NCBI RefSeq assembly: GCF_022846255.1 | Contig: NZ_AP025682.1 | Reading direction: 5' to 3' (one strand) | Source of the DNA: Escherichia coli | Lineage (GTDB): Bacteria > Pseudomonadota > Gammaproteobacteria > Enterobacterales > Enterobacteriaceae | Length of the DNA: 64,000 nt | In this document: positions 23,259 through 26,417 of the stretch, piece by piece | Layout of the letters: each line of letters opens with the position of its first letter | How positions within the stretch are numbered: position 1 is the first letter of the stretch | The notes under the pieces: generated by a model | Database searches by the model: none | The model's input: the letters and a program-made list of their open reading frames with translations, nothing else | What the model was told of the DNA's origin: nothing | Translations under genes and position numbers: made by a program

Positions 23259-23277
23259 TAATTAGCTCAAGCAATCA

Positions 23278-23305
23278 AGCCCTGGTAACTGCCAGGGCTT
23301 TTTTA
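23278..23305 (+). terminator. rho-independent terminator of rne
   Basis: Hairpin AGCCCTGG-taactg-CCAGGGCT followed by TTTTTT, 20 bp after the rne stop. Confidence 0.8.
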
Positions 23306-23329
23306 TTTCAGGGTAGCATCTTTGTTGTA

Positions 23330-23359
23330 ATGACATTAGCGTTACATGTGCTGTATAAT
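23330..23359 (+). promoter_or_regulatory. sigma70-like promoter of the toxin-antitoxin operon (-35 ATGACA, 18-bp spacer, -10 TATAAT)
   Basis: Motifs read from sequence; GGAT Shine-Dalgarno follows before the antitoxin ATG at 23391. Confidence 0.55.
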
Positions 23360-23390
23360 TATCATCCATGCAAAGCCGAAGGATATATTT

Positions 23391-23684
23391 ATGCCAGCAG
23401 CCAATAACATTCCAACCAGGCGCGAATCTTTAAATTTGCGCATAAAACCCGCAGAACGCGATCTTATTGACCGGGCCGCTAAAGCCCGAGGAAAAAATCG
23501 CACCGAATTTGTCCTTGAGGCCGCCAGAGCCGCTGCTGAAGAGGCGCTCATTGAGCAGAGAATTTTCAGGATCGATTCTGATGATTACCAGCTATTTTTG
23601 AATCGTCTGGATCAGCCCCCCGCGCCCAATGCTGCATTACGCAAAACCATGCAAACACCCGCGCCGTGGGAGCAAAAAAAATGA
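23391..23684 (+). CDS. DUF1778 (TacA/AtaR-like) ribbon-helix-helix antitoxin
   Basis: 97-aa [37 protein letters not shown]…[12 protein letters not shown]…; RHH-like N-terminus plus the …PPAPN… C-terminal segment typical of antitoxins paired with GNAT toxins; ATG chosen inside the track ORF because it has a Shine-Dalgarno. Confidence 0.8.
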
Positions 23685-24175
23685 TTCAGGCCCCCGAGCC
23701 ACTCATGGCAAGGCATCAATTCACCTCTTTTTGCTCGGGAGTAGAAACGATGGATAACTGGCTAAAGCAGAGGGCCCTAAAAAATCAGCTTGCCGGCGCA
23801 TCACGTACATTTGTTAGCTGTGATACGTATAGCAACGTTTTGGCATATTATTCGCTTGCTTCCAGCGCCGTTGAAACGTATGTCGCGACAGGACGATTTC
23901 GCCGAAATATGCCAGAACCGATCCCTGTTGTAGTACTTGGTCGTCTGGCAATAGATAAATCATTACAGGGTCAGGGCATCGGTCGTGCGATGGTCAGAGA
24001 TGCCGGTCTACGAGTACTACAGGCGGCTGAAGTCATTGGTATTCGCGGAATGTTGGTCCATGCGTTATCAGACCAGGCCCGAGAGTTTTATCTGCGAGTG
24101 GGGTTTGAACCATCGCCTGTCGATTCTATGATACTGATGGCAACATTGGCTGATTTGCAGGAATGTCTTAAATAG
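23681..24175 (+). CDS. GNAT-family acetyltransferase toxin (TacT/AtaT/ItaT-like)
   Basis: 164-aa [17 protein letters not shown]…FCSG…[12 protein letters not shown]…[16 protein letters not shown]…[10 protein letters not shown]; the N-terminal APEPL segment and the Q-G-x-G-x-G acetyl-CoA-loop-like motif resemble TacT as I recall it; ATGA start/stop overlap with the antitoxin; GGGAG Shine-Dalgarno 8 nt upstream. Confidence 0.8.
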
Positions 24176-24203
24176 TTCGTTATGTCTCATGCAAAATAAA
24201 TAT

Positions 24204-24227
24204 CCTCCGGCATAGCCGGAGGTTTTT
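24204..24227. terminator. hairpin CCTCCGGC-ata-GCCGGAGG plus T-run: IS200 right-end hairpin, probably also terminating the toxin transcript
   Basis: Perfect 8-bp stem read from sequence, 29 bp after the toxin stop; same design as the split left-end hairpin. Confidence 0.6.
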
Positions 24228-24303
24228 CAAATGCGCCTATAAGGCTCTCTTACCAGCCGCGCCCTAACAGGCGCACACGATCTGACATTTGCATCCAACT
24301 TCG

Positions 24304-24762
24304 TTACTTACGGCCCGTAAACGGGCTGCCCGGATAGGGAATCGATAACTGCTCTCCCATTTTATCCTCTTCAAGCTGGTGCTTTATGTAATCCTGTATC
24401 TTCGCCGTGTTCTTACCCACCGTATCGACGTAATACCCTCTGCACCAGAACTCCCTGTTCCTGTATTTGAATTTCAAATCACCAAACTGCTCGTAAAGCA
24501 TCAGACTGCTTTTCCCTTTCAGATATCCCATAAAGCCGGATACGCTCATTTTGGGCGGGATCTCCACAAGCATATGGATATGATCTGCACAGCATTCAGC
24601 TTCCAGAATCCGTACACTTTTCCACTCACACAGCTTTCTCAAAATACAGCCTATTGCTCTACGCTTCTCTCTGTAGAACACCTGTCTTCGGTATTTTGGC
24701 GCAAATACTATGTGATATTTACAGTTCCATCGGGTGTGCGCTAAGCTCTTTTCGTTCCCCAT
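24304..24762 (-). CDS. tnpA: IS200 transposase TnpA (Y1 HUH transposase)
   Basis: 152-aa ORF MGNEKSLAHTRWNCKYHIVFAPKYRR…HIHML…, essentially the IS200 TnpA sequence as I recall it; start trimmed from the track ORF. Confidence 0.92.
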   Translation of the reverse strand: MGNEKSLAHTRWNCKYHIVFAPKYRRQVFYREKRRAIGCILRKLCEWKSVRILEAECCADHIHMLVEIPPKMSVSGFMGYLKGKSSLMLYEQFGDLKFKYRNREFWCRGYYVDTVGKNTAKIQDYIKHQLEEDKMGEQLSIPYPGSPFTGRK

Positions 24763-24768
24763 TGGGAC

Positions 24769-24837
24769 CCCCTTTTGATTTCTTGTTTGACACTTGCAGT
24801 TGCCAGACCGCAAGGTGTTTTAACAAATCAAAAGGGG
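24769..24837 (-). promoter_or_regulatory. IS200 leader stem-loop sequestering the tnpA Shine-Dalgarno
   Basis: 13-bp perfect inverted repeat CCCCTTTTGATTT / AAATCAAAAGGGG (24769-24781 and 24825-24837) with the AAGGGGG Shine-Dalgarno in the arm next to the ATG. Confidence 0.7.
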
Positions 24838-24878
24838 TTTTAATAACTGGCTCAAAGCTGAAAGCTTTCCGGAACCCC

Positions 24879-24889
24879 CAGCCTAGCTG
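24879..24889. repeat. IS4 target-site duplication, left copy (CAGCCTAGCTG)
   Basis: Identical 11-mer abuts both IS4 termini. Confidence 0.9.
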
Positions 24890-26315
24890 TAATGCCAGTC
24901 AGTTAAGCAACTGACTGGCTCTTTTTCGGGGCTGTGGGGTATTTCCAGGGCCTCTCCTTTACCACTCTCGGGAAGGCCCTTTCCCTTCTTGTCGGTAATT
25001 TCACAAGTTGTCCCATACTTGCAAGATCGCGCATCAGCTCCGGTATACGTCCCGGTGAAGCGCCCTGCAATGTCATCAGCATTCTCATCACCATTCCACA
25101 TGATTCTGAGAAACTCAGTTGATTCGGCCAGTAACCTTTCAGATGTTCCGCCATTTTAATCATCTGATATCTCACCAGATTATAAGCCAGTAAGACACCC
25201 CACAGCTCTTGCTCCACAAGCTCCGGTTTTTTACTTCTCAGCGTCAGCCTGCTCAGTTGCATCGTCTGTTTTATCTCCCTGTATCCCAGTTCGATTTCCC
25301 AGCGATGACTGTACAGATCCGCCATTTCTCCTCCGGGGAAGCGCATGGCGTCCGTCATCGACGTCAGCAGATGGCAGACTTTTCCTTTGCGCGTCACGGT
25401 CAGCAGGCGGGCTGTCACTTCATTTCCCAGTCCCGGCCACTTTTTTCGTGCCTGCGGGCTGGTTTTCAGCTTCACCAGATGATCGCCTTTACCCAGTTTT
25501 CTGATCTCTTCATATTGCGCTCCCTTTCTGAGAGGTATCATCCAGTGGCGGTGTTCTCCCGCCAGGCTCCAGGCATTTAACAGTCCCAGTGAGTAATAAC
25601 CTTTATCCATTAACGTCAGAGTGTTATCGCCGGTTTGTTCTATAAGTTGCTCAGCAAGCTCATTTTCGCTGTTCTTCATCGTGCCGAAGGCTGCAGCCGT
25701 CAGCAGATGGCTGGTCAGTTCCATCTGGCAGACCATTTTGACCTGCGGGTAGAGCGCCGGGTTCCCGGCATGTGTCTGGCGGGGGAAGGCTGCATCGTTC
25801 TCTGGTGTATCCGGTGTGCGCCAGAACACACCATCGATGGCCAGCAGGGTCAGGCCGCACCAGTGCGGATGCGGCGTGGCGTTATGCCAGAGCTGCGCTG
25901 TTTTCGTGAACACGCGGCGGACAGCCTCACTTCCCAGGCGCTGGCGGGCCTGAATAACGGCACTGGGGGCAACGAAGGGGCGATTGCCCGGCAGCATGAT
26001 GTCCAGGCGATTCACAATCTGGTGAAGAGGTTCTTTACGCTCAAGCGCCATGCCAACAATACACCAGACCATCATTTCGAGGGGAAGACGGCGCTTGCGT
26101 AGCGTTACAGTACCTGATTCGGCAAGGCAACGAGAGATGAGTTCGGGGTCGAGGTAATCCCCCAGAGAAGTCAGTGGGTTACGCAGAGAATCGTAACGGG
26201 ATACCAGATCAAGAGCCTGTCCAATGTGCATAAAAAAATCCGGAAACAAGTGAGCGTTTCCGGATTCTTACACAGCCACTGGATCGGTCAACTGATCCTT
26301 AACTGATCGGCATTA
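24890..26315 (-). mobile_element. IS4 insertion sequence, complete (1426 bp)
   Basis: 18-bp terminal inverted repeats TAATGCCAGTCAGTTAAG (24890-24907) and TAATGCCGATCAGTTAAG (reverse complement of 26298-26315), 16/18 identical; 11-bp flanking direct repeat; single long transposase ORF. Confidence 0.95.
24903..26231 (-). CDS. IS4 transposase
   Basis: 442-aa ORF starting [34 protein letters not shown]…, recognised as the IS4 transposase; start trimmed from the 448-aa track ORF. Confidence 0.93.
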
Positions 26316-26326
26316 CAGCCTAGCTG
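26316..26326. repeat. IS4 target-site duplication, right copy (CAGCCTAGCTG)
   Basis: Identical to 24879-24889. Confidence 0.9.
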
Positions 26327-26340
26327 GGGGTTTTCTGTGC

Positions 26341-26376
26341 ACAAAAATGCCCGCCCCGGCGATCCCGGAGCGGGCA
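26341..26376 (-). terminator. rho-independent terminator of the flgBCDEFGHIJKL/flgKL transcripts
   Basis: Minus-strand hairpin GCCCGCTCCGG-gatcg-CCGGGGCGGGC followed by a T-run, about 40 bp after the flgL stop. Confidence 0.7.
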
Positions 26377-26417
26377 GACAAAACATACCCAGTTTCATGA
26401 TATGTTTTAAAGCGAGC

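Follow-up and report, generated by a model that had tools for sequence, protein, structure and literature searches.

In a 64-kb stretch of Escherichia coli DNA (hereafter the window, to which all coordinates refer), the convergent genes rne and flgL are separated by a gap of 3.16 kb, 23259-26417. In K-12 MG1655, flgL ends at 1140986 and rne at 1141182, leaving 195 bp that also house the annotated small RNA (sRNA) gene flgO, in agreement with the couple of hundred base pairs expected by an initial annotation of the window. A Pfam scan of the gap reveals four genes, coding for an antitoxin, a GNAT toxin, the Y1 transposase of an IS200 and the transposase of an IS4. The toxin-antitoxin (TA) module and the two insertion sequences (IS) reported between the rne and flgL terminators are thus all present, at or near the places first given for them. 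The gap probably holds a three-layer accessory patch of known elements, acquired in the order TA cassette, IS200, IS4. It is framed by the following features.

20073-23258, plus strand: rne, coding for RNase E (1061 aa), the left flank; open reading frame (ORF) colinear with annotated E. coli rne.
23277-23305, plus strand: intrinsic terminator of rne, a 10-bp stem at 23277-23300 and a T-run to about 23305 (fold -18.1 kcal/mol, z -3.6).
26348-26376, minus strand: terminator of flgL, a 12-bp stem with 10 G-C pairs (predicted fold).
26418-27371, minus strand: flgL, the right flank (ORF).

Both terminators fold well beyond shuffled controls, the rne terminator has the same sequence in K-12 and in the window, and both flanking coding sequences are unaltered by the insertions. 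The two insertion sequences occupy the flgL side of the gap.

24197-24889, minus strand: major part of IS200 (right end, tnpA, 5′ untranslated region (UTR), inner half of the left-end hairpin); identity to annotated copies of IS200C, 99.4-99.8%.
24204-24222: right-end hairpin of IS200, followed on the plus strand by TTTTT.
24304-24762, minus strand: tnpA of IS200, a Y1 transposase of 152 aa (Pfam Y1_Tnp, E = 1.7e-37).
24772-24895, minus strand: 5′ UTR of IS200, or art200 region (Rfam STnc490, 120.5 bits against a gathering score of 56).
24879-24889: IS4 target-site duplication, copy 1, CAGCCTAGCTG, corresponding to IS200 nt 17-27.
24890-26315, minus strand: IS4, 1426 bp, with imperfect terminal inverted repeats (5 substitutions in 1426 nt relative to the K-12 IS4).
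24903-26231, minus strand: insG, the intact IS4 transposase of 442 aa (Pfam Nterm_IS4 and DDE_Tnp_1; 2 aa differences from K-12 InsG).
26316-26326: IS4 target-site duplication, copy 2, CAGCCTAGCTG, a direct repeat of the first.
26327-26342, minus strand: left-end stub of IS200, 16 bp, made of the outer arm of the terminator hairpin and the terminal GTGCAC (same terminus at nine other IS200 sites).

IS200 spans 24197-26342 and measures 709 bp after in-silico removal of IS4 and one copy of the duplication. IS4 is therefore not beside IS200 but nested within its left-end terminator hairpin (nt 17-27), and the 16-bp stub separates IS4 from the flgL terminator. The initial annotation saw insertions stacked within the terminator-to-terminator gap itself; for IS4 this does not hold. 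Because the 11-bp duplication lies within the IS200 hairpin, IS4 is the later arrival of the two. When rejoined, the first 33 nt of IS200 contain a perfect hairpin, AACCCCCAGC-TAG-GCTGGGGGTT, with a reconstituted fold of -18.7 kcal/mol; the left-end hairpin of IS200 has been described as a bidirectional terminator at nt 12-34 (PMC4513863). It is identical to the right-end hairpin at 19 of 25 positions, with compensatory changes in the stem (read by eye), a likeness suggesting that the split hairpin is probably also the recognition hairpin of TnpA. The window copy of IS200 is probably immobilised, its intact tnpA notwithstanding, and it would have lost its insulation against incoming transcription.

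Both elements fit their families closely. Like IS200C, an IS200/IS605 element, the window copy has 709 bp, a 152-aa Y1 transposase, no terminal inverted repeats, no real target duplication, a left-end terminator hairpin beside a T-run, the 5′ UTR stem-loop with art200, and a right-end hairpin, so that subterminal hairpins stand at both ends; it differs in being split by IS4 within the left-end hairpin. The match to STnc490 lies on the tnpA-sense strand and extends 6 nt into IS4, while STnc490/art200 has been described as antisense to the tnpA 5′ UTR (PMC4513863). The IS4 has the DDE transposase with the IS4 N-terminal domain, the 1426 bp, the terminal inverted repeats and an 11-bp duplication, within the 11-13 bp usual for this element. 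The K-12 IS4 shares its length and its 442-aa DDE transposase and has a 12-bp duplication at its own site; unlike the window IS4, which interrupts another insertion sequence instead of host DNA, it is not in an IS200. The duplication in the window is flanked by AA...TT. The target rule of IS4, dating from the literature of the 1980s, is AAA-N20-TTT, and the window flanks are only loosely alike. A composite transposon bounded by two insertion sequences was ruled out, as one of the two lies within the other, they come from different families, and no DNA is enclosed between them.

The site entered by IS200 can be reconstructed from strain SCU-111, which has the TA cassette without the insertion sequences, and involves three further features.

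24193-24196: what is left, on the left side, of the A/T run targeted by IS200 (AAAA; comparison with the SCU-111 empty site).
26343-26347: what is left of the same run on the right side (AAAAA); these five bases make up the U5 tail that the flgL terminator retains (SCU-111 comparison and fold).
26343-26418, minus strand: 3′ UTR of flgL, counterpart of the K-12 sRNA FlgO (K-12 annotation of flgO, 1140986-1141063, and fold).

The empty site in SCU-111 is catgcAAAAAAAtgccc, and in its place the window has four A's, the insertion and then five A's. At the level of the whole junction, the TA-only allele reads catgcAAAAAAAtgcccgc and the window reads catgcAAAA, then IS200::IS4, then AAAAAtgcccgc. 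When 24197-26342 and two A's are removed, the sequence reverts to the TA-only allele of SCU-111, with 7 substitutions along 1,153 colinear nt. This identifies as the target of IS200 the T-tract of the flgL terminator, in which FlgO has its 3′ tail; the junctions are ambiguous by no more than 2 bases (A/T). The T-tract, with 7 T in the TA-only allele, has 5 T followed by GTGCAC in the window, and the stem is intact. The early statement that both terminators are intact is consequently right for the rne terminator and for the flgL stem, and wrong for the flgL T-tract. At 26367 and 26372, in the right arm of this terminator, the window has G where SCU-111 and K-12 have A, giving a fully Watson-Crick 12-bp stem.

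FlgO is a σ28-dependent sRNA of about 75 nt that derives from the flgL 3′ UTR and is strongly bound by Hfq (Melamed et al. 2023, PMC10578931). Its counterpart in the window has the same position and the same two-hairpin fold directly after the flgL stop codon, but the U7 tail is cut to U5 and continues into IS200 sequence (GUGCAC). Such a shortened tail could weaken both FlgO/flgL termination and Hfq binding.

IS200 is absent from both junctions of the rne-flgL site in all 5,426 complete E. coli genomes surveyed (counts from this set are uncorrected for shared ancestry), and the junction between the IS200 left end and flgL has no match in a metagenome scan of 241 million records. The insertion is nevertheless real, since an independent short-read contig with an identical RNase E, DRR102846_98, terminates in the IS200 right-end hairpin and carries a TA-IS200 junction identical to that of the window. 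An assembly artefact was also ruled out by the precise duplication and the clean excision.

The layer next to rne is the TA cassette.

23311-24188, plus strand: TA cassette, 878 bp (comparison of K-12, E. albertii, SCU-111 and the window).
23330-23359, plus strand: predicted σ70-like promoter of the TA operon, ATGACA-18-TATAAT, 11/12 match to the motif.
23391-23684, plus strand: tacA-like RHH/DUF1778 antitoxin, 97 aa (Pfam TacA1, E = 1.2e-26; PDB 7AK7_C, E = 1.2e-45).
23681-24175, plus strand: tacT-like GNAT toxin, 164 aa (Pfam GNAT domains; PDB 7AK7_A, E = 7.7e-76 over 162 residues).

The cassette is not a pure addition, as it substitutes for about 52-61 bp of ancestral spacer, with breakpoints after ATTTCA and before ATGCAAAA that are ambiguous by a few bases. 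The claim that insertions left the flanks undisturbed thus stands for the coding sequences only; the U-tail of FlgO/flgL is shortened and part of the old spacer is deleted. An 887-bp TA segment occurs as a single chromosomal copy in 686 of the 5,426 genomes (~13%), and the three carriers that were opened (SCU-111, E2348/69 and SC477) have the cassette between rne and flgL; in strain 042 the flgL-rne match is split, as it would be in a carrier. An uninterrupted short gap of the K-12 type is found in 4,735 genomes (87%), and about 4 hold something else. Outside E. coli, contigs located through FlgL homologues show a short gap without inserts in four species, of 197 bp in E. albertii, 147 bp in E. 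fergusonii, 255 bp in S. enterica and 162 bp in C. koseri. The spacer of E. albertii aligns colinearly with the one that K-12 has in place of the cassette. Given these outgroup gaps, the cassette appears clearly as a derived gain within E. coli and as accessory, in line with the initial annotation, for which its presence in K-12 or in most E. coli would have made it core.

One could instead regard the cassette as ancestral or core and subsequently lost by K-12-type strains. It has a single fixed locus, it is found in lineages as distant as E2348/69 and 042, and in 191 of the 686 carriers the copy is only 95-99% identical to that of the window, as expected for long residence. Yet it is absent from 87% of E. 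coli, and the outgroups offer only short empty gaps, one of them colinear with that of K-12. A scan of representative genomes with the toxin also found only relatives of at most 71% identity, scattered across Proteobacteria and none of them in Escherichia or Salmonella, although the exact peptide words used miss orthologues at ~70% identity such as TacT2, which makes this weak evidence of absence. An ancestral cassette is therefore largely refuted, and we consider it most improbable.

TA before IS200 is the order suggested by two observations: excision restores the TA-only allele of SCU-111, and no genome has IS200 here without the cassette. Under this reading, an ancestor within E. coli would have swapped the 52-61 bp of rne-flgL spacer for the 878-bp cassette with its own promoter, and the TA allele would since have been inherited, or recombined among lineages, to its present share of E. 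coli. In the rare lineage of the window, IS200 would then have inserted, left end towards the stem, at the T-tract of the flgL/FlgO terminator, a target of the kind usual for this element. IS4 would have followed, at a hot spot that it uses recurrently, the loop of the terminator hairpin at the IS200 left end. The alignment against K-12 and a panel of E. coli, proposed in the initial annotation as a check, thus gives the short gap as the empty site and TA, IS200, IS4 as the most likely order; its notion of sequential events that spared the flanking coding sequences is borne out.

Some results weigh against stepwise assembly. The intermediate allele, with TA and an uninterrupted IS200 at rne-flgL, was not found among the complete genomes, so that the second and third steps are not directly separable. 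The entry of the cassette has left little trace of a mechanism: no integrase, inverted repeats or duplication were found at the cassette, and only an 8-nt match, CATCTTTG, lies near the left breakpoint. Finally, the IS200-IS4 junction of the window occurs, at loci unrelated to rne-flgL, in 320 of the complete genomes, and these may stem from a handful of events.

The missing intermediate is also what one would expect if there had been only two events, a pre-formed IS200::IS4 composite having moved as a unit, by means of the IS200 TnpA and ends, into the flgL terminator T-tract. The same 2.15-kb composite is present at at least 4 unrelated loci with 99.4-99.8% identity, the IS200 part in the window differs from the hisIE-wzzB copy at only 2 positions, and one may speculate that the IS4 inverted repeats reunite the hairpin halves in single-stranded DNA. 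However, the hairpin split by 1.4 kb is the probable recognition site of TnpA, and the composite should be a poor substrate. Moreover, the junction is confirmed in the same orientation at 4 loci (the window, hisIE-wzzB, a pathogenicity-island site and hypT) and in the opposite orientation, at exactly the same IS200 position, at 1 (sugE-ecnB, in strain E597, among 6 records of this kind). The IS4 copies at hypT and sugE-ecnB match the window IS4 at every one of its 1,426 bp, while their IS200 hosts differ from that of the window at 14 and 6 of 20 variable positions, respectively. Because identical IS4 copies lie in divergent IS200 copies, and in both orientations at the same position, repeated and independent insertion of IS4 into resident IS200 copies, that is, a target hot spot, is favoured by these comparisons; an uninterrupted IS200 left end is found in 2,116 genomes. 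Movement as a unit is thus unlikely.

A further alternative is a one-step import of the complete 3-kb arrangement, in which homologous recombination would have brought in the rne-flgL region of an unsampled donor already carrying it. Core regions of E. coli recombine often, and the lineage of the window is rare, with flanks that are at best 99.3-99.6% identical to any complete genome. Such an import, however, merely moves the stepwise assembly into the donor, and no donor was found in the 5,426 complete genomes or in the 241 million metagenome records, so that we hold it to be quite improbable. The colinearity with E. coli covers 12000-24190 and 26400-51000, with best identities of 99.6% and 99.3%, respectively, among complete genomes, and the exact RNase E sequence of the window is on record for only 3 contigs. 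From this the lineage appears to be rarely sampled, and run DRR102846 appears to come from the same or a sister strain. The exact FlgL protein of the window is very common (39,023 index blocks).

The choice of targets bears on why the elements lie where they do. We compared ten IS200 sites, taken as independent: the window, the pathogenicity-island site, hisIE-wzzB, hypT, sugE-ecnB, caiF-carB, the Nissle iro island, sbcB-plaP, hcxB-ybiJ and a plasmid. At all ten, including sites that are not convergent gaps, the left end of IS200 adjoins the U-tract of a GC-rich hairpin. This agrees with a preprint, the sole relevant find of literature searches on the IS200 target and on IS4 within IS200, in which terminator-like sequences show their strongest enrichment upstream of IS200/IS605 elements (10.1101/2025.07.22.666184). 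Since every sampled left end abuts such a U-tract, the convergent terminator zone is, as far as these junctions tell, a preferred target of IS200 and not merely a tolerated one.

This contrasts with a purely permissive, neutral landing zone, in which random insertions persist in the convergent terminator gap. The flanking coding sequences and both terminator stems do survive, selection must have tolerated the insertions in any case, and S. bongori independently has other genes in the same flgL-rne gap, namely an MFS transporter gene (400 aa) and a LysR-type regulator gene (299-311 aa). S. bongori is the only one of the five species examined outside E. coli with another occupant, and it gives some support to a permissive site across genera, but not within E. 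coli. An insertion hot spot should have many different occupants across strains, whereas the E. coli gap is empty in 4,735 genomes, has the TA cassette alone in 686, something else in about 4, and IS200 in none. Accumulation at a permissive site, as the initial annotation had it, is thus only weakly supported, and neutral tolerance is not needed to account for the placement of IS200, given T-tract targeting at 10/10 sites. IS4, for its part, is not in host DNA. Neutral persistence as the whole explanation is accordingly of low probability, about that of a one-step import, and target specificity explains the placement of both insertion sequences better than mere permissiveness.

In Nissle 1917 (NZ_CP022686.1, 4658230-4660085), IS200 sits after the T-run of the terminal hairpin at the end of an IS4, directly following TAATGCCAGTCAATTAAGCAACTGACTGGCTCTTTTT. 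This nesting is the reverse of that in the window, and IS200 and IS4 appear to hit each other's hairpins. It is about an even bet that the landing pads are hairpins of the terminator kind and not permissive gaps, with IS200 choosing the T-tracts of intrinsic terminators, IS4 having a structure- or sequence-specific hot spot in the loop of the IS200 left-end hairpin, and IS200 reciprocally inserting at the IS4-end hairpin. A literature search found no paper describing reciprocal targeting of IS4 and IS200, much of the older IS literature lying outside the search.

The TA module looks intact and fits the TacAT, or GNAT-RHH type II, family in both gene arrangement and sequence. The antitoxin gene comes first and the toxin gene second, with a 4-bp overlap, and the best PDB matches of the two proteins are two chains of one complex, 7AK7, which we take, by elimination rather than from the PDB molecule name, to be the Salmonella TacA2-TacT2 complex. 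Other PDB matches of the toxin are weaker, at ~1e-44 for TacT (5FVJ/7AK8) and 2e-15 for TacT3 (6G96), the latter being the published TacT3 structure (PMC5959882). In TacT2, substitution of the catalytic Tyr137 or of Arg88 at the surface abolishes toxicity (PMC5959882); the window toxin retains both residues and the QGQGIG acetyl-CoA motif. It thus resembles the Salmonella pair in having overlapping genes, a DUF1778/RHH antitoxin first and a GNAT toxin of ~165 aa second, a toxin alignment that runs end to end, and the conserved Tyr137, Arg88 and acetyl-CoA motif. The two pairs differ in chromosomal site, the rne-flgL gap being empty in the S. enterica example examined, and the window toxin is a diverged relative rather than the same protein. 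TacT3 and AtaT2, relatives of the window toxin, act on Gly-tRNA (PMC9177977). By homology to the solved complex 7AK7, the window toxin would acetylate aminoacyl-tRNA and arrest growth, and the antitoxin would neutralise the toxin and repress the operon.

The window toxin is identical to WP_000613626.1 of SCU-111, E2348/69 and SC477. In a plasmid search with the toxin, real plasmid relatives are at most 76% identical, and no plasmid donor was identified; the only 100% matches, CP088669.1 (730 kb) and NZ_CP141089.1 (4.9 Mb), were set aside, as their sizes indicate chromosomal sequences filed as plasmids. A search for inverted repeats that might form a TA operator picked up the rne terminator and nothing else. 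Read by eye, a short palindrome (TAATG-A-CATTA, 23328-23338) overlaps the predicted -35 element. In the TA-only allele, no obvious terminator belonging to the TA operon precedes the flgL hairpin, which transcription would reach from its back. In the window, the IS200 right-end hairpin with its plus-strand T-run reads as an intrinsic terminator for this operon.

The composition of the gap adds little. GC content is 0.48 in the TA cassette, 0.47 in IS200, 0.53 in IS4 and 0.51 in both flgL and the whole window, so that GC content and skew give no useful signal of foreign DNA; the GC comparison once suggested as a check is uninformative. Neither an integrase or recombinase ORF nor att-type direct repeats were found in the gap, its GC shows no clear deviation, and there is no tRNA gene in the 64-kb window. 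What lies between rne and flgL resembles a genomic island in being accessory, at a fixed locus and polymorphic within the species, but it is a cassette-sized replacement plus two insertion sequences rather than an island. No complete genome among the 5,426 matches it over as much as 80% of its length. Core RNA elements elsewhere in the window are listed below.

17683-17851, minus strand: SraB.
19712-20048, plus strand: rne5, the 5′ UTR element upstream of rne (Rfam).
44744-44793, plus strand: PyrC leader.
53924-53966, plus strand: ES036.

All the components of the gap belong to well-known families, hundreds of genomes already have the TA allele annotated, and the IS200::IS4 insertion is private to its lineage; the only mildly new element suggested by these data is that IS200 and IS4 appear to target terminator-like hairpins reciprocally. 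The main value of the locus is as a correctly annotated example, in which mobile DNA that seems stacked in a terminator zone is in part nested and in which the positions of both insertion sequences follow target preferences, not chance tolerance. For E. coli, the TacAT2-like cassette at rne-flgL provides a clean presence/absence marker that splits the species about 13:87, and the shortened U-tail could change an abundant Hfq-bound sRNA and permit flagellar read-through into IS4 and IS200. For the insertion sequences, a hot spot of IS4 in IS200 would, if confirmed, be a modest addition to what is known of IS target choice; reciprocal nesting, if true, would let IS4 disable IS200 copies and remove their transcriptional insulation, a case of one insertion sequence policing another.

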